Shown here piece after piece: positions 3,232 through 59,633 of a stretch of 64,000 nucleotides of DNA (positions are counted from its first letter, which is position 1; every line of letters begins with the position of its first letter). The notes below the pieces were generated by a model. That model made no database searches. It was given only the letters and a program-made list of their open reading frames with translations, and was not told where the DNA came from. The DNA is from Gammaproteobacteria bacterium (GTDB lineage Bacteria > Pseudomonadota > Gammaproteobacteria > UWMA-0217): positions 17,168 to 81,167 of the forward strand of contig JALSHZ010000121.1 in the NCBI GenBank assembly GCA_026981985.1, in the 5' to 3' direction. The position numbers and the translations under genes were made by a program.

Positions 3232-3307
3232 GGCCAGGTAGCTCAGTCGGTAGAGCAGGGGACTGAAAATCCCCGTGTCGGCAGTTCGATTCTGTCCCTG
3301 GCCACCA
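3232..3307 (+). tRNA. tRNA-Phe (anticodon GAA)
   Basis: A 76 nt cloverleaf: acceptor GGCCAGG/CCTGGCC, D arm GCTCAGTCGGTAGAGC, anticodon loop CTGAAAA, T arm GGCAG-TTCGATT-CTGTC, and an encoded CCA end. Confidence 0.95.
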
Positions 3308-37243: not shown

Positions 37244-39082
37244 ATGCAAAAAAAACACAAAGCCGTTGAATACCCGGTGCTGCCCAGCACGCTGAATCCT
37301 GAGCAGGTAGAAACCCTGCCTGGATTATTTCGTGCCCGCGTGGCCGCAACGCCAGACAAGATTGCCTATCGCCATTTCGATGTGGCGGGCAAGCGCTGGT
37401 TGGCAACGACCTGGGAGGAGATTGCTACCGAAGTCGGGCACTGGCAGGCAGCGTTGAAAAAGGAAGGTCTGGTTGCCGGTGACCGTGTCGCTGTGATGCT
37501 GAAGAATTGTCGGGAGTGGGTGGTGTTCGACCTTGCCGCGCTTGGCCTGGGGCTGGTGGTGGTGCCGCTGTATACCGATGACCGTCCCGAGAACGCTGCC
37601 TACATTATGGAAGATGCGGGTGTAAAACTGCTGCTGGTGGAAGGCAAGAAGCAGTGGAAGCGGTTGCAGCAGGTGTCGTCCCGCCTGAAAAATTTGCAGC
37701 GCATCGTCAGTGTCAACACTATCGAGAAAGACGACAGGCCGCAGGACGTGCACTTGCAGAGCATGTCCGAGTGGCTGTTTGGCGTGGAAGGCTCGGTGTT
37801 GGCCGAGGAGGGTGATCCGATGGGCCTGGCGACCATCGTCTACACCTCCGGCACCACCGGCAAACCGAAAGGGGTCATGCTCAGCCACGACAATATCCTT
37901 TTCAACGCCTGGGGCGCAGCGCAGTGTGGCAGTTTCTCGCCCGACGATCGCTTTCTTTCTTTCCTGCCGTTGTCGCACATGCTCGAACGCATGGCGGGCC
38001 TCTACTTTCCGATGATGATTGGTGCCGAGGTGGTCTACTCACGCGGCATCAACCAGCTGGGCGACGATCTGGTGACGCAAAAGCCAACCACGCTGGTTTC
38101 CGTGCCACGCATTTACGAGCGGGTCTATGCGCGCATCATGGGCAAGCTGCGCAAGGATTCGGCGTTCAAGCAGAAAATTTTCCACAAGGCGGTGGAGACA
38201 GGTTGGAAGCGTTTCGAATACCAGCAGGGTCGCGGTAAATGGGACAAATCCATTCTGCTTTGGCCGGTTTACAAACGGCTGGTGGCCGACAAGATCTTGC
38301 AGCGCCTGGGCGGGCGGTTGCGCTACGCGATCTGTGGTGGCGCAGCGCTGCCGCCGGATATTGCGCGGATGTTCATCGGGCTTGGATTGCCGATGGTGCA
38401 AGGCTATGGCATGACCGAAACCAGCCCGGTGATCTGCGTCAACCGCCCTGACGACAACATTCCAGAAAGCATTGGCCAGGTCTTGCCCGGTGTCGAGGTG
38501 CGCATCGGTGAAAACGACGAGCTACAGACCCGCAGCCGCTCAGTCATGCTGGGTTATTGGAACAACCAGCAGGCTACCGATGACACGATCGACTCAGATG
38601 GCTGGCTGCACACCGGTGATCAGGTTCGGGTCAATGAGACTGGCCACTATTTCATCACTGGCCGAATCAAGGAAATCATCGTGCTGGGTAATGGCGAAAA
38701 GGTACCGCCCGCCGATATGGAGATGGCAATCGCCATGGACCCGCTGATCGATCAGGTCATGGTCATTGGCGAGGCGCGCTCGTACCTGACAGCGCTGGCG
38801 GTGCTGGAACCGCAGGAGTGGCAGGCTCTGGCGAAGACCCTGCGGCTCGACCCGAATGACCCGGAAAGTCTGCAACAGAAGAAAACGGAGAGGGCGGTAT
38901 TGGCACGCATCAGCAAGCGGTTGGGTAGTTTCCCTGGGTATGCTCAGGTGCGCAAAGTGCATTTGACCCTGGAGCCATGGACCGTCGATGATGGCCTGTT
39001 GACCCCAACCCTGAAGATGAAGCGGCCGCAGATCGTCAAGCGTTTCGAGCAGGAGATCGAAGCGATGTATCGGCAGCGCTGA
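37244..39082 (+). CDS. Long-chain fatty-acid--CoA ligase (AMP-binding)
   Basis: The AMP-binding motif TSGTTGKPKGVMLSH and a long-chain acyl-CoA synthetase-like C-terminus. Confidence 0.9.
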   Translation: MQKKHKAVEYPVLPSTLNPEQVETLPGLFRARVAATPDKIAYRHFDVAGKRWLATTWEEIATEVGHWQAALKKEGLVAGDRVAVMLKNCREWVVFDLAALGLGLVVVPLYTDDRPENAAYIMEDAGVKLLLVEGKKQWKRLQQVSSRLKNLQRIVSVNTIEKDDRPQDVHLQSMSEWLFGVEGSVLAEEGDPMGLATIVYTSGTTGKPKGVMLSHDNILFNAWGAAQCGSFSPDDRFLSFLPLSHMLERMAGLYFPMMIGAEVVYSRGINQLGDDLVTQKPTTLVSVPRIYERVYARIMGKLRKDSAFKQKIFHKAVETGWKRFEYQQGRGKWDKSILLWPVYKRLVADKILQRLGGRLRYAICGGAALPPDIARMFIGLGLPMVQGYGMTETSPVICVNRPDDNIPESIGQVLPGVEVRIGENDELQTRSRSVMLGYWNNQQATDDTIDSDGWLHTGDQVRVNETGHYFITGRIKEIIVLGNGEKVPPADMEMAIAMDPLIDQVMVIGEARSYLTALAVLEPQEWQALAKTLRLDPNDPESLQQKKTERAVLARISKRLGSFPGYAQVRKVHLTLEPWTVDDGLLTPTLKMKRPQIVKRFEQEIEAMYRQR

Positions 39083-39156
39083 TACATCGCTTGAAGTCTG
39101 TTCAAGTTGCGGAGTCTAGCCGGATGGTTTTTGTGGCTGGCCGGCCGCAAACCTCC

Positions 39157-39311
39157 GCTGTAACTACTCAGCGTTCGCTCAAGTAGAACTGGCACTGCTC
39201 AGATTGCCGCTGGAATGCGTCAGATCAAGGCGGGAAATGTGAGTTTACACGTGTAAATGACCATTTCCCAACGCAGAGATGGCGCATTCCAGTGGTGAGC
39301 TGAGTAGTTGC
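39157..39311. repeat. MITE-like intergenic repeat, copy A. It has terminal inverted repeats (GCTGTAACTACTCAGC ... GCTGAGTAGTTGC) and an internal palindrome TTTACACGTGTAAA.
   Basis: About 85% identical to the reverse complement of 58573-58721. Confidence 0.8.
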
Positions 39312-39319
39312 GTGCCGCT

Positions 39320-39715
39320 TCAATCAACCCGCTTCAGCAGAATCTGATTCGGCGCATCGTCGCTCGCAAAGCGCGTCGGGCGTGATTTCAGGTCGGAGCC
39401 GGCACGTAGCCGCAGTTTGTGCAGCGAGACCATTTGGGCAATCATCGGCACTTCCTGGATATTGCCGGAGGGCGTGTGCATTTTAAGGGTGAGGTGAGCC
39501 GGGTCACGGCTGCTGTCCAGCGTCCAGGTTCCTACCAGTGTCCGCTCGTCCTGACTCAGTGCGAGATCTTCATTGCTGAATTGCAGCGTGATCTGATGTC
39601 CAGCCGCATCCGTCCCCTGCCATCTTCCCTGGATATCGGTATCGATCGATGTGGAGCAGCCTGCGAGCAGTGTGGTGGCGAGAATCACACCAAATCCAAA
39701 TATCCCCTTGTTCAT
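39320..39715 (-). CDS. Hypothetical lipoprotein
   Basis: The lipobox LLAGC following MNKGIFGFGVILATT. Confidence 0.7.
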   Translation of the reverse strand: MNKGIFGFGVILATTLLAGCSTSIDTDIQGRWQGTDAAGHQITLQFSNEDLALSQDERTLVGTWTLDSSRDPAHLTLKMHTPSGNIQEVPMIAQMVSLHKLRLRAGSDLKSRPTRFASDDAPNQILLKRVD

Positions 39716-42565: not shown

Positions 42566-42673
42566 CGAAACCGCCACCTCGGCGACACAAATTATGTAGA
42601 GCGTATCAGCCGTTCGGCTGATGCTTTGCACTTACGATTACGTCCTCTCCTAGCAGGTAAAAAGGGCGTATCA

Positions 42674-43702
42674 ATGAATAAGATCCTTACCGTCACCGTC
42701 AATTACAAGACAGCCGAACTCACCATCAAGTGCATTGAATCCGTTGCCCGGGAGCGTGAGCTGAATGCCCCGGGGCTGGAGATGTGTGTTGTCGACAATG
42801 ACTCGCAAGATGGCTCGGTCGAGAAAATTGCCGCGGCGGTACGGGAAAACGGCTGGTCCGATTGGGTTGAGGTGCTTCCCGCGGGTTGCAATGGCGGATT
42901 CTCCTTCGGCAACAATGTGGCGATCCGCCCTGCGCTCGCCCGGCCACGTGATCAGCAGCCTGACTTCATCTGGTTGCTCAACCCTGATTCTGAAGTCGAA
43001 CCCGGTGCGGCCCTTGAGCTGATCCGGTTCATGCAGGAGCGTCCGCGGGTGGGCATGACGACAGGGCTTTCCTATGGTTTGGATGATGAGATTCAGACCG
43101 TGGCCTATCGCCACTTCAGTCCGCTGACCGAGTTTGTTGGCATGTCACAAATTGGTGTGCTTGAACGCCTGATGCCGTTCTCGAATGTCGTGCTGCCGTT
43201 GGGTGATGAGCCCAGCCAGGCGGTCTGGCTTTCCGGCGCCTCGCTGATGATCCGTCGCGAGGTGTTCGATGATACGGGCCTGATGGATGAAGACTATTTT
43301 CTCTACTTCGAGGAAACCGATCTGTGCATCCAGGCCGGGCGTGCCGGCTGGGAGATGTGGTATGTGCCAGCCAGCCGGGTGATGCATGTCGAAGGCGCTG
43401 CGACGGGTTTCACGCTCGAAGAGGTGGCCAAGCCGCGGCGTGCGCGGTACTGGTTTGAGTCGCGGCGTCGTTTCTTCCGCAAAAACTACGGCTTGCTGGT
43501 CGCCATGCTGGCGGATCTGGGCCATCTGAGCGGATATATGCTGTGGCGTCTGCGCCGCATGCTCCAGAACAAGCCGGATCTCGACCCGCCGTTCTACTTG
43601 CGCGACTTCGTTGCCAACAGCATTTTCGTGGCAGGATTCGGTTTGGGGCGCAGCAAGCTGGCTATTCCGCAATCTCCAGAACGGCTCGCTGGCCGGGCGT
43701 AA
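42674..43702 (+). CDS. Family 2 glycosyltransferase (paralog 1 of 3)
   Basis: A GT-A fold with VVDNDSQDGS (DXD), and a conserved C-terminus YWFESRRRFF shared with the two other copies. Confidence 0.85.
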   Translation: MNKILTVTVNYKTAELTIKCIESVARERELNAPGLEMCVVDNDSQDGSVEKIAAAVRENGWSDWVEVLPAGCNGGFSFGNNVAIRPALARPRDQQPDFIWLLNPDSEVEPGAALELIRFMQERPRVGMTTGLSYGLDDEIQTVAYRHFSPLTEFVGMSQIGVLERLMPFSNVVLPLGDEPSQAVWLSGASLMIRREVFDDTGLMDEDYFLYFEETDLCIQAGRAGWEMWYVPASRVMHVEGAATGFTLEEVAKPRRARYWFESRRRFFRKNYGLLVAMLADLGHLSGYMLWRLRRMLQNKPDLDPPFYLRDFVANSIFVAGFGLGRSKLAIPQSPERLAGRA

Positions 43703-53278: not shown

Positions 53279-54262
53279 TCAGGTCTTACGCTTGTCGAGC
53301 GAGAACCCCTTGACGAAAACACTGTGCCGGAAAAAATCCGTCAGATAGGCTGGCGGATCGAGGTTTTGCTTGCGTTGGATGAACTGACGTATCAGCCAGA
53401 GTGAATAGCCAGCCATGTGCAGGGCGTCAGCCAGCGCCGCATAGGCAGCGCCGTGATTCTTGATGAAGTAGCGGCGGCGGGATTCGAACCAGTAGCCGGG
53501 CCTTCGTGGTTGCCGGGCGCTGGTGTGCCGAAAACCTGTCGAGGCGCCAATCACGTGCAGGATTCTGCTCTCCGGCACATACCAAAGCTCCCAGCCTTTG
53601 CGCTGCGCCTGGAGACAGAAGTCGCTCTCCTCGAAGTAGAGGAAGTAATCTTCGTCCATCAGGCCGATGGTGTCGAAAACCTCGCGCCGAATCATCAGTG
53701 AGGTGCCGGATAGCCACTCCGCCAGGTGTGGTTGGGGTTCCGGCGTGACTGGAATTACCGTTTTTGGCAGCAGGCGATCGACGATCCCGAGCCGCAGGTT
53801 CGAAAAGAATTCACTCAGCGCAGTGAAGTGGCGGAAGGCCATGGCTTTTTGCTCGCCTTCGGGATCGATATAGCGGCTGGTGGCCAGCCCGGCTTTGGGA
53901 TGCGCTTCCATGAAATCCAGCAAGGCCTTGCCTGCACCCTCTAGCGATTCCGCATCAGGGTTGAGCAACCAGAAGTAGTCGGGCGGCTGGTCAGCTGTGA
54001 GTGCCGGGCGGATGGCGATATTGTTGCCATAGGAAAAACCGCCATTGCGTTCGGCCGCGACGACCTCAGCCCAAGACTGCCAGCCATTCTCTTTGATAGC
54101 GTTTCTGATCGTGTCGACAGACCCATCGCCGGACTGATTGTCGACCACAACCATTCGGGTTTGCTCGGGAAGGTTGCGCAGGTCGGCGGCAATGGATGCC
54201 AGGCACTTGATGGTCAGTGCGGCAGTGCGGTAGTTGACGGTGACAATGAGCAGTTTGGGCAT
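53279..54262 (-). CDS. Family 2 glycosyltransferase (paralog 2 of 3)
   Basis: LLIVTVNYRTAALTIKCL..VVDNQSGDGS..YWFESRRRYF. A longer ORF runs to 54289. Confidence 0.85.
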   Translation of the reverse strand: MPKLLIVTVNYRTAALTIKCLASIAADLRNLPEQTRMVVVDNQSGDGSVDTIRNAIKENGWQSWAEVVAAERNGGFSYGNNIAIRPALTADQPPDYFWLLNPDAESLEGAGKALLDFMEAHPKAGLATSRYIDPEGEQKAMAFRHFTALSEFFSNLRLGIVDRLLPKTVIPVTPEPQPHLAEWLSGTSLMIRREVFDTIGLMDEDYFLYFEESDFCLQAQRKGWELWYVPESRILHVIGASTGFRHTSARQPRRPGYWFESRRRYFIKNHGAAYAALADALHMAGYSLWLIRQFIQRKQNLDPPAYLTDFFRHSVFVKGFSLDKRKT

Positions 54263-54481
54263 GGGGGTTGGGCCATTTGGGATTGGCATTGTTGTCTCTG
54301 GCCGCGATGGTAGTAGAGATGCTTGAAAAGATCACGGAACCCATCCGGTTTCCGTGGCGGATGCACTCTTTTGGTTGGTTTGGCCCAGTTGATCTCATGA
54401 TCAGATGAACAGAGTTTCACAGTTGGCCACTCAAGACTGTGTTAGCTTGGTGTTTGGAGGAAGTTGCACAGATATTGACCG

Positions 54482-55519
54482 ATGAGTGAGAAGCCGATTC
54501 AACTGGCGATTGTAACCGTCAACTACAAAACGCCGGACCTGACCAATAGATGTATCGATGCGGTCTTGAACGATGCGCAAGCATTACCGCCCTTTCGCAT
54601 GTTTGTGGTCGATAACAACTCCGGGGACGGGTCGCCGGAGGTGATTGGCCAACATATTGACGCGCGTGACGCAGGTGATTGCGTCGAACTGCTGGTGGCG
54701 CCAGTGAATGGTGGCTACGCCTATGGCAACAATGTTGCGTTGCGCGCCATTCGCGAGCGTGGCTTGGATCCGGCTTATATCTGGTTCCTCAATCCCGATA
54801 CCGAGGTCGAGCTGGGTGCCGGCAAGGCGCTGATCGACTTTCTCGATGCGCATCCACAGGCAGGTATGGCGGGCAGTGGGCTGATCGACGCTGACGGTAC
54901 GCCCCAGATCTCCGCGTTTCGCTTCCACGCGCCTCTGAATGAATTTCTCGAATACATGCAGCTGGGCATTCTGGATCGGCTGTTCAGCAACTATCAGGTA
55001 ACGATGCCGGTCGCGTCAGTGCCGCATCGTGCCGACTGGGTGACCGGCGCCTCGTTCATGATCACGTCGCGGTGCATCGACAGCGTAGGGCTGATGGATG
55101 AAGGCTACTTTCTCTATTATGAAGATGTCGACTATGGTTTTGCGGCAGCCCGGGCCGGATGGGAGGTTTGGACAGTGCCGCAGAGTCGGGTGTTCCACGT
55201 CTGTGGTGCGGCAACGGGTGTGCTCGATTTCAATATGAAACAGCCGCGCCGGCCGGATTACTGGTTCGAATCACGCCGCCGCTTTTTTCTGAAGAACTAC
55301 GGTAAGACGACGCTGCTGCTGGCCGATATTGCCCTGCTGACGGGTTTCTCCCTGTGGCGCCTGAGGCGCCTGATTCAGCGTAAACCCGATTTCGACTCGC
55401 CTGGATTCCTTGGTGATGCATTCCGCCATTCCGTGTTCGCGAAGGGCTTCCGTCTACAGACACGTGCGTTGCCATCGGAAGTCGAGCTGCCGCTGGCGGA
55501 GCAGGATTCCCCATCCTGA
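54482..55519 (+). CDS. Family 2 glycosyltransferase (paralog 3 of 3)
   Basis: LAIVTVNYKTPDLTNRCI..VVDNNSGDGS..YWFESRRRFF. Confidence 0.85.
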   Translation: MSEKPIQLAIVTVNYKTPDLTNRCIDAVLNDAQALPPFRMFVVDNNSGDGSPEVIGQHIDARDAGDCVELLVAPVNGGYAYGNNVALRAIRERGLDPAYIWFLNPDTEVELGAGKALIDFLDAHPQAGMAGSGLIDADGTPQISAFRFHAPLNEFLEYMQLGILDRLFSNYQVTMPVASVPHRADWVTGASFMITSRCIDSVGLMDEGYFLYYEDVDYGFAAARAGWEVWTVPQSRVFHVCGAATGVLDFNMKQPRRPDYWFESRRRFFLKNYGKTTLLLADIALLTGFSLWRLRRLIQRKPDFDSPGFLGDAFRHSVFAKGFRLQTRALPSEVELPLAEQDSPS

Positions 55520-57910: not shown

Positions 57911-58567
57911 TTGATCAATATGGTTGCGCTACAACGTACAGTGCCGGAGTTCAGCCCGGTAATCGACCGTTTTCTTCAAAACTGTCATATCAAGCACTAT
58001 CCGCCCCGCTCGGTCATCATCCATGCGGGTGATCCACCGGAAACATTGTACTTCATCACCCGTGGCTCGGTCACCGTCATGATCGAAGACAAGGACGGGC
58101 ACGAGCTGGTGCTGGCTTATCTGAACAAGGGTGAGTTCTTTGGTGAAATGGGGCTGTTCGACGACAAGGCCCGTAGCGCATGGGTTGTCGCCCGCAGCGA
58201 ATGTGAAGTGGCCGAAATCCACTACAGCCAGTTCAAGAAGCTGTCGGCTGAAGACCCCGAGATTCTGTTCTCATTGGCGACACAAATGGCAACCCGCCTG
58301 CGTGACACGAGCCGTAAGGTCATCGACCTCGCTTTCCTTGATGTGACGGGACGGATTGCCCACACCTTGATGGAGCTATGCAGCCAGCCAGACGCAATGA
58401 CGCACCCCGACGGTATGCAGATCCGCATCACTCGTCAGGAAATCGCCAAAATCGTTGGTTGTTCCCGCGAAATGGCAGGTCGGGTGTTGAAAGACCTGGA
58501 AGAGCAGGGATTGGTCAGCGCACACGGCAAAACCATCGTGGTATTCGGCGCACGTCCTGGCACTTAA
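57911..58567 (+). CDS. crp: cAMP receptor protein (Crp/Vfr)
   Basis: A cNMP-binding domain (FFGEMGLF) and a C-terminal helix-turn-helix ([17 protein letters not shown]). An alternative start lies at 57920. Confidence 0.93.
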
Positions 58568-58572
58568 AACCT

Positions 58573-58721
58573 GCTGTAACTACTCAGCTTACCCCCCTTA
58601 TTTGCGCCAACTCTGCGTTGGAAGTGCTCATTTACACTTGTAAACTGCGCGCTTCCGCCTTGATTTGACGCAAAACGGGGGCAATCTGAGCAGTTACGAG
58701 ACTGTGCTGAGTAGTTACAAC
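58573..58721. repeat. MITE-like intergenic repeat, copy B, inverted relative to copy A
   Basis: Terminal inverted repeats GCTGTAACTACTCAGC/GCTGAGTAGTTAC and an internal TTTACACTTGTAAA. Confidence 0.8.
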
Positions 58722-58737
58722 CTGCTTACCTCAAGCA

Positions 58738-58772
58738 AACAAAAAAAGGCGGCCTCTAGGCTGCCTTTTTTG
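58738..58772. terminator. Bidirectional Rho-independent terminator between crp and trpC
   Basis: An A7 run, the hairpin ggcggcc-tcta-ggctgcc, then a T6 run. Confidence 0.7.
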
Positions 58773-58829: not shown

Positions 58830-59633
58830 TCAAAAAAACAGCTCCGCCAACGCCTCACCCGGGTCATCAGCCCGCATGAAGGCCTCCCCAACGAGGAAGC
58901 CGTTGACGTTAGCGGCGCGCATTTTTTCCACATTATCCCGGGTATGGATGCCACTTTCGGTGATCAACAGCCGATCGTCGGGGATCTTGTCCAGCATGCG
59001 CAGGGTGGTATCGAGTGACGTCTCGAACGTTCGCAGATTGCGGTTGTTGATGCCGATCATCGGCACTTCCGTCGCCAATGCGCGTTCGAGTTCGATCTCG
59101 TCGTGGACTTCCATCAGCACGTCGAGGCCGAGTTCGGTGGCCAGGTCAGCGAAAGCGCGCAGGTCGCGGTCGCCGAGACTGGCGGCAATCAGCAGGATGC
59201 AGTCTGCGCCCAGTGTGCGTGCTTCGTAGATTTGCCAGGCATCGACGACAAAATCCTTGCGCAGCACCGGCAACTCGCAGGCATTGCGCGCCTCGATCAG
59301 ATAGTCATCGCTGCCCTGGAAGAAATCGACATCGGTCAGTACCGAAAGGCAGGTCGCACCGCTGGCTGCATAGCGTTCGGCGATCCAGCCAGGATCGAAA
59401 TCCGGGCGGATCAGCCCCTTGCTGGGAGACGCTTTCTTGATCTCGGCGATGACCGCCGGCTCACCGGCGGTGATGCGTTCCCGCAGTCGCCCAATGAAGC
59501 CCCGGGGAGGCGAGGCAGAGCCCAGCCGTTCCCGCAGTGCATCGAGCGGGGTGTGTTGCTGGCGCTCGGCGACTTCTTTGAGTTTCCGTCTGAGTATCTT
59601 TTGCAGGATGTCGTCGGTGGCTGCTCGGGTCAT
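58830..59633 (-). CDS. trpC: Indole-3-glycerol phosphate synthase
   Basis: Full-length TrpC homology. Confidence 0.96.

Follow-up and report, generated by a model that had tools for sequence, protein, structure and literature searches.

Two hairpin repeats beside crp and a lipoprotein gene are very probably miniature transposons tied to the IS66 family

The two short repeats that we followed in the window (the whole stretch of 64,000 nucleotides of gammaproteobacterial DNA under analysis) are very probably transposable elements of the miniature inverted-repeat kind (MITEs). The best overall explanation is that both are non-autonomous DNA transposons with a 13-bp terminal inverted repeat (TIR), moved in trans. 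A MITE signature had been named by the original prediction, and it is borne out by the TIRs, by 8-bp target-site duplications (TSDs), by empty orthologous sites, by at least 120 loci in other genomes and by IS66-family insertion sequences with the same ends. The elements are small and non-coding, and they have a TSD of fixed length, dispersed copies, site polymorphism and an autonomous partner. A transposase encoded elsewhere would bind the 13-bp ends, and the element would then insert at a cut staggered by 8 bp, which would give rise to the 8-bp duplication of the target. What lifts this family above routine is its breadth across phyla, ends that in some copies hold the last codons and the stop codon of a transposase, and strand-specific covariation in the group of elements, here called type I, to which both window copies belong.

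Direct reading of the sequence confirmed two copies in opposite orientation, with boundaries slightly shifted from those first given (Table 1). Copy A scores 135 bits with nhmmer on the forward strand versus 27 bits on the reverse strand, and copy B scores 121 bits on the reverse strand. The TIR pair has the form GTAACTACTCAGC ... GCTGAGTAGTTAC and spans 13 bp, not the 14-15 bp originally assigned; the additional GCT lies in the flank and, in copy B, belongs to the target duplication. The 13-bp repeat is exact at three of the four ends in the window, with a single mismatch at the fourth. Sequences within two mismatches of GTAACTACTCAGC occur 6 times in the window, compared to 0.61 expected, and none of 100 shuffles reaches 6. 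The central palindrome TTTACAC(G/T)TGTAAA is present as described (2 in the window versus 0.02 expected), and the alignment shows that the sequence of this apical palindrome is kept across the type I family. Neither window copy holds an ORF of its own, and a type I profile search of the 64-kb window returned only copies A and B.

Table 1. Coordinates of the two window copies, their neighbours and related features in other loci
Feature	Sequence	Position	Strand	Details
AMP-binding ligase gene	window	37244-39082	+	upstream neighbour of copy A
Copy A TSD, left half	window	39152-39159		CCTCCGCT; decayed, 5/8 match to GTGCCGCT
Copy A	window	39160-39311	+	152 nt; type I MITE, long-spacer subfamily; sense strand is +
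Copy A left TIR	window	39160-39172	+	GTAACTACTCAGC; exact match
Copy A inner subterminal repeat	window	39191-39203	+	GGCACTGCTCAGA; degenerate; family consensus GTAACTGCTCAGA; alignment columns 34-46
Copy A apical palindrome	window	39244-39257		TTTACACGTGTAAA; hairpin tip
Copy A right TIR	window	39299-39311	+	GCTGAGTAGTTGC; one mismatch
Copy A TSD, right half	window	39312-39319		GTGCCGCT; adjoins stop codon (39320-39322) of the lipoprotein gene
Small gene with LAGC lipobox	window	39320-39715	-	convergent neighbour of copy A
crp	window	ends 58567	+	neighbour of copy B
Copy B TSD	window	58568-58575		AACCTGCT; starts straight after crp stop codon (58565-58567)
Copy B	window	58576-58718	-	143 nt; type I MITE, short-spacer subfamily; sense strand is -
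Copy B right TIR, element orientation	window	58576-58588	-	reads GTAACTACTCAGC on +
Copy B apical palindrome	window	58631-58644		TTTACACTTGTAAA
Copy B inner subterminal repeat	window	58685-58697	-	GTAACTGCTCAGA
Copy B left TIR, element orientation	window	58706-58718	-	GTAACTACTCAGC
Copy B TSD, second copy	window	58719-58726		AACCTGCT; perfect, 8/8
Bidirectional intrinsic terminator	window	58741-58771		between copy B and trpC; serves crp and trpC
trpC	window	58830-59633	-	neighbour of copy B
Assembly ends inside copy A	L121	4917-4980
Assembly ends inside copy A	L122, L123	near contig ends
Cassette of about 500 bp, exact 13-bp ends	L144	2080-2584
Cassette of about 500 bp, exact 13-bp ends	L145	10482-11002
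Cassette of about 500 bp, exact 13-bp ends	L147	675-1171
Cassette of about 500 bp, exact 13-bp ends	L148	588-1085

The two copies are less alike than had been estimated. We measured 75% identity (106 of 141 aligned columns, plus 13 gap columns), compared to the figure of about 85% in the original prediction, and A and B fall in two different type I subfamilies. Among the copies listed, copy A is nearest to copies from Sedimenticola (85% identity) and copy B to copies from Methylococcales (81-83% identity). Because each copy is nearer to those of other genera than to its partner in the window, local duplication is excluded. A reading in which the pair arose by chance or local duplication, with no family behind it, draws on the presence of only two copies in the 64-kb window, but it is almost certainly wrong: the motif counts are far above those of shuffled sequence, the 75% identity and the closer kin in other genera do not suit it, copy B has a perfect TSD of its own, and the element is found at no fewer than 120 loci elsewhere.

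These loci come from a census of one genome per species, in which the two 11-nt cores had to be exact and 103-133 nt apart; at least 120 loci in other genomes were found, as expected for the dispersed family that had been proposed. TSDs had been suggested as a check, and 8-bp duplications are found, with that of copy B perfect. Among GTAAC...GTTAC elements in the loci listed, the flanks match at 8/8 in 87 and at 7/8 in 23 of 169 end pairs; that is, 110 of the 169 end pairs among the matches listed reach at least 7/8, while in a control whose left flank was displaced by 10 nt none is above 5/8. The length of the duplication is fixed at exactly 8 bp, and the duplicated sites in the loci listed are A+T-rich. 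An origin of the REP or ERIC kind, the other option offered for the repeat, is not supported, given the true TIRs and the target duplications.

The two insertions would differ in age. Copy A appears to be the older one and an immobile fossil, given its decayed duplication and mutated right end. Copy B is predicted to be a copy that could still move, because its ends are intact and its duplication is perfect. In the 64 kb of the window we saw no transposase bounded by these ends, and any current mobility of the element here is therefore putative. Short-read assemblies of the same organism (SRR7968108 and SRR33214775) break inside copy A, on both sides. Since repeats stop short-read assembly, these breaks suggest that there are further copies elsewhere in the source genome. 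The repeat is of practical concern, in that it interrupts short-read assemblies and may be annotated in error as a regulatory hairpin or as a gene for a small RNA.

The search for a transposase that shares the TIR led to IS66-family insertion sequences with near-identical or exact ends. In the loci listed, end pairs 0.2-6 kb apart yielded no autonomous copy, only neighbouring MITEs; an all-against-all clustering of ORFs found no shared transposase, only two RAYT-like ORFs; and a scan for IS66 motifs was negative. These two ORFs (L005 272-1117 and L036 2381-3259, both on the reverse strand) are similar to each other, look like RAYT or IS200 by eye and are unrelated to the elements with 13-bp ends. 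ORFs beside orphan ends in L054 and L055 were considered as partner transposases and rejected as ordinary genes. The decisive loci emerged when metagenomes were scanned for exact ends separated by 470-500 nt, which gave five elements. One, in L146, is a deletion derivative of 526 bp in which the repeats are exact and the C-terminal 112 aa of an IS66 transposase remain (NF033517, E 7.7e-18; PF03050); the other four carry a small passenger gene of the GxxExxY / PD-(D/E)XK family.

Autonomous single-gene IS66 elements that have ends of this kind and 8-bp duplications do exist, at a length of about 1.6-1.7 kb. Locus L156 holds an intact insertion sequence of 1700 bp that is bounded by GCAACTATTCAGC / GCTGAATAGTTAC and whose 8-bp duplication, GCGTATTT, is perfect; its ORF of 472 aa scores 267.8 bits to the NF033517 IS66 family transposase model (cutoff 180). 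The insertion sequence in loci L150-L154 is 1564 bp long and bounded by GTAACTATTCAGC / GCTGAATAGTTAC; its duplication matches at 7/8, and its transposase is split into three reading frames. In the intact IS66 copies the repeat differs from GTAACTACTCAGC by one or two bases; the examples with the exact repeat are the gene fragment in L146 and a short contig (L155) with the 3' end of the gene only. Both L156 and L150 have the transposase frame only, with a DUF6444 N-terminal part and no tnpA or tnpB. Lacking tnpA and tnpB, they therefore resemble the single-gene group of IS66, which we take to be that named ISBst12. We infer that this IS66 clade supplied the enzyme that moved copies A and B. 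We detected no similarity between the type I interior and the IS66 copies found, and thus type I is not a simple deletion derivative of these copies.

In some of the IS66 elements, the right TIR also encodes protein. In L155, the IS66 transposase frame ends ...I-A-E-stop within the exact repeat (gct gag tag ttac). In both L155 (481-493) and L150 (3443-3455), the right TIR comprises the last two residues and the stop codon, as GCT GAG TAG or GCT GAA TAG. The frame of L156 already stops a few bases short of the repeat. At the level of codons, the end variant C8→T is a synonymous change from GAG to GAA, in the codon that precedes the stop; the left repeat mirrors this variant, which is also found in some type I MITEs. 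The use of the end as C-terminal codons of the transposase may be the reason why the 13 bp are conserved across phyla. In a separate observation, a neighbouring predicted ORF ends in TAA within the TIR (distance -3) in 7 of the 81 type I copies listed.

A different partner was suggested by a single locus. In L095, a frameshifted transposase gene of the ISNCY family (NF033594, 266 bits) has an orphan GTAACTACTCAGC 136 nt upstream, which would point to an rve-type enzyme of that family, not IS66, as the mobilising transposase. We consider this very improbable. The intact ISNCY homologues (L134-L142; 66% and 54% identity) lack this repeat even when 3 mismatches are allowed, and the real ends of the ISNCY elements read TGTTATAAC...AATGTCA. 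An ISNCY partner was accordingly rejected, as its intact homologues have different ends and no GTAACTACTCAGC. The frameshifted ISNCY element (L095 2478-3660) sits 27 nt inside the orphan GTAACTACTCAGC and beside an intact 131-nt MITE; since its end lies 27 nt inside the repeat, the ISNCY element is merely beside or within a MITE remnant.

The family that includes the window copies is tied to IS66, and its main departure is the short 13-bp repeat. By the published rule, IS66 ends begin with GTAA and the elements are flanked by 8-bp direct repeats (PMC11946415), and a GTAAC-type end is on record for ISPsy43 (PMC12888890). The ends of the window family likewise begin 5'-GTAA and have 8-bp duplications, and elements with the same kind of ends (L156, L150) encode a DDE_Tnp_IS66 transposase. 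However, the shared repeat is 13 bp of the form GTAACTA..., whereas usual IS66 repeats are 20-30 bp and of the GTAAGCG type; conservation of the ends stops at 13 bp. The window elements are also non-coding, with an interior unrelated to the IS copies found, and the insertion sequences of 1700 bp and 1564 bp differ from the canonical three-gene IS66 (tnpA-tnpB-tnpC) in having neither tnpA nor tnpB. As is reported for tIS66 elements, versions that carry a passenger occur here too, namely the GxxExxY cassettes of L144 and L147.

Other families of small repeats resemble the window elements in part. The Correia element (NEMIS) of Neisseria is likewise a MITE of about 100-155 bp with TIRs, intergenic, often co-transcribed and able to form long hairpins; it has a TA duplication and 26-bp repeats and is not known outside one genus, whereas the window family has an 8-bp duplication, 13-bp repeats, hosts in several phyla and an IS66-type partner. 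ERIC sequences, at about 127-150 nt, are likewise imperfect palindromes that lie between genes in transcribed DNA, and they bear signs of selection on RNA structure. Their ends differ from those of the window elements, they are not known to have a regular 8-bp duplication or a transposase, and their hosts are enterobacteria and vibrios, whereas the hosts of the window family are mostly uncultured Gamma- and Zetaproteobacteria, Chloroflexota and members of other phyla. The REP/BIME repeats, which RAYT tyrosine transposases mobilise, are also abundant, intergenic and palindromic, but they are hairpins of 20-40 nt without TIRs or TSDs, while the window elements are 143-152 nt long and have both. 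MIC231 of Bacillus cereus, a passenger unit bounded by IS ends and moved in trans, is similar to the GxxExxY cassettes; it depends on IS231/IS4 instead of IS66, and the window copies are free of genes.

Gene context was as originally described, with copy A between the ligase and lipoprotein genes and copy B between crp and trpC. With its TSDs included, copy A adjoins the stop codon of the lipoprotein gene, and copy B that of crp. The crp-trpC spacer also holds a bidirectional terminator, which consists of an A-run, a 7-bp GC stem, a TCTA loop and a T-run (-20 kcal/mol on the forward strand and -16 on the reverse) and which a consensus terminator scan missed. Relatives with Crp homologues at 88-89% identity are Thiotrichales bins, and convergent crp-trpC synteny is kept in these relatives, where the two genes are 12-141 nt apart and only a terminator lies between them. 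In all, 7 related contigs lack the element in this spacer, which are too diverged for a base-exact empty site, and relatives without the element still have an equivalent crp-trpC terminator. If copy B and one copy of its TSD are removed, the window spacer has the layout of the relatives: stop codon, short spacer, terminator. Copy B thus lengthens the predicted 3' UTR of crp by 143 structured nucleotides, upstream of the terminator that belongs to crp itself.

The original prediction also held that the repeat probably acts as a terminating or transcript-stabilising hairpin. Two observations seem to favour a structured element under selection by the host, of the REP, ERIC or terminator kind, that ends or stabilises the transcripts of its neighbours: both strands fold into very stable hairpins, and both window copies lie in the 3' regions of convergent genes. 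In addition, 80 of the 81 type I copies listed are intergenic. However, no T-run follows the stem on either strand of the copies, and a site scan of copies A and B found no terminator-like or promoter-like site. Orientation relative to the flanking genes is random: among the 81 type I copies listed, genes read into 28 in the sense and 34 in the antisense direction, and genes face away from 33 and 34, respectively. Placement between convergent genes is found in only 7 of the 62 copies listed with both neighbours, and is therefore not a family trait. The lack of a U-tract and the random orientation leave a terminator or stabiliser role unsupported, and copy B lies upstream of an independent bidirectional terminator that is present in relatives without the element. 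With orthologous spacers that lack the element, and with TIRs and 8-bp duplications that show arrival by transposition, we regard a host-selected role as improbable. Both window copies are most likely passive passengers that have no host-selected role in the window, although the element may have a secondary effect on mRNA decay.

The pairing of the type I hairpin is maintained through compensatory changes, with wobble pairs tolerated on only one of the strands, and the hairpin does not look like a service to neighbouring host genes. RNA folding, which had been proposed as a check, gives one long hairpin for each copy: -79.4 kcal/mol (z -7.0) for copy A, a single hairpin, and -76.6 kcal/mol (z -9.2) for copy B, with z-scores from -4.3 to -9.2 over both strands of both copies. 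We examined pairing in an alignment of 59 type I copies from the loci listed, built from sequence only. The consensus structure has 43 pairs, of which 27 show double compensatory changes. Paired cells make up 95.7%, compared to 83.0% for column shuffles and 32-45% for slid partners, and the covariation score is 0.381 versus 0.151, with none of 500 shuffles reaching 0.381. Conservation of sequence from Gamma- to Zetaproteobacteria is seen in the apical palindrome and the internal loops (CAAGGCG..., ...AACGC), while the stems vary.

The covariation differs between the two strands. G·U cells outnumber A·C cells by 228 to 35 (6.5 to 1), although the cells are not independent events and subfamily ancestry inflates these counts; in the consensus sequences of clusters, the ratios are 120:19, 88:13 and 45:7. 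Similarly, the sense strand folds better, by 10.7 kcal/mol, in 64 of the 66 type I copies listed. No such bias would be expected from a process at the level of the duplex, for instance the formation of a cruciform or parallel change in two arms that bind transposase. The random orientation of the copies means that transcription or replication of the host cannot explain it either. Elements with other interiors and the same ends are not hairpins over their whole length and show no excess asymmetry, and so the signal is specific to type I. We infer from these comparisons that, among propagating copies, the sense strand has probably been selected as a single strand, most simply as RNA. Type I is thus a test case for RNA selection on the hairpins of MITEs.

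One extension of this result is that the type I hairpin functions as a small RNA in its own right, for example as a regulator or decoy of the IS66 transposase or as a nuclease substrate, for which the TIRs would merely be a vehicle. The compensatory changes at 27 of the 43 pairs with their strong covariation, the G·U excess of 6.5 to 1 that survives in the cluster consensuses, the consistent folding asymmetry between the strands, and the conservation of loops and apical palindrome while the stems vary all point in this direction, as does an asymmetry that, given random orientation, does not come from host transcription or replication. Nevertheless, we think it doubtful, though possible, that such an RNA is at work: there is no promoter-like or terminator-like signal within either copy, no Rfam match, and no conservation at orthologous loci, the other interiors with the same ends are neither full hairpins nor asymmetric, and the counts of cells are inflated by subfamily ancestry. 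The Rfam comparison gave no family match for the element, with only noise in the E-value scans of both copies. (The sole match at the Rfam gathering score in the window is a tRNA gene at 3232-3304, with 70.2 bits.) We would also propose, very tentatively and as a rather unlikely account, that the type I hairpin acts as a one-strand molecule, likely RNA, used for propagation or for taming the IS66 transposase, with transfer between Gamma- and Zetaproteobacteria on a vehicle that has the 13-bp ends. If true, a class of structured RNA would be hidden inside a MITE.

The ends are shared far more widely than the interiors. When 141 elements among the matches listed were stripped of their ends, they fell into at least 35 unrelated interior clusters, and the same ends occur across roughly six phyla among these matches. 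Type I, the largest interior cluster (141-157 nt), holds both window copies; a profile search found 81 type I copies in 880 kb of the loci listed, in hosts labelled as Thiotrichales, Methylococcales, Chromatiales, Sedimenticola, Pseudomonadales and Zetaproteobacteria. Other interiors with the same ends and 8-bp TSD occur in Chloroflexota, Beggiatoaceae, Bacteroidota, Ignavibacteria, Elusimicrobia, Leptospiraceae and a Clostridiaceae bin. Interiors track taxa, with hosts that are mostly metagenome bins, for which single assignments may be wrong. One 13-bp end with at least 35 interiors in about six phyla, mostly in uncultured bins, points to a widely travelling clade of IS66, and the 13-bp end is a simple marker of the activity of that clade. 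Searches of the literature by end sequence, including the supplements of a Thiomargarita genome paper, returned only unrelated primer matches, and no description of the element was found in topic searches of the literature, in Rfam or in plasmid records. A blastn search of copy A against the PLSDB plasmids gave no match, and a scan of IMG/VR for the MITE pattern gave only one, in L133. Phages thus do not appear to be the main carriers. The element in L133 (13270-13415) is 146 nt long with its own distinct interior and a 7/8 TSD (TTATAAT shared), and lies on a 56-kb viral contig.

Some elements with exact 13-bp ends carry the GxxExxY gene noted above (Table 1). The TSD of these cassettes is 8/8 in L148 and 7/8 in L144 and L147, and none is seen in L145. 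The gene encodes about 125 aa of the GxxExxY / PD-(D/E)XK family (TIGR04256, E 1e-44; PF13366); L144 and L147 have it intact, while the versions in L145 and L148 are broken. The 156-nt MITE in L118 looks like a deletion derivative of a cassette similar to that of L148. Such cassettes may help explain why GxxExxY genes are multi-copy.

Two further observations concern repeats of other kinds and sizes. The longest direct and inverted repeats of the window are accounted for by three family-2 glycosyltransferase paralogues identified with Pfam (42626-43702 on the forward strand, 53279-54289 on the reverse and 54482-55519 on the forward). Among type I copies, that in L043 (2880-3153) reaches 274 bp, has a perfect TSD, TCCTTTCC, and contains about 120 extra bases in the apical part of the hairpin.
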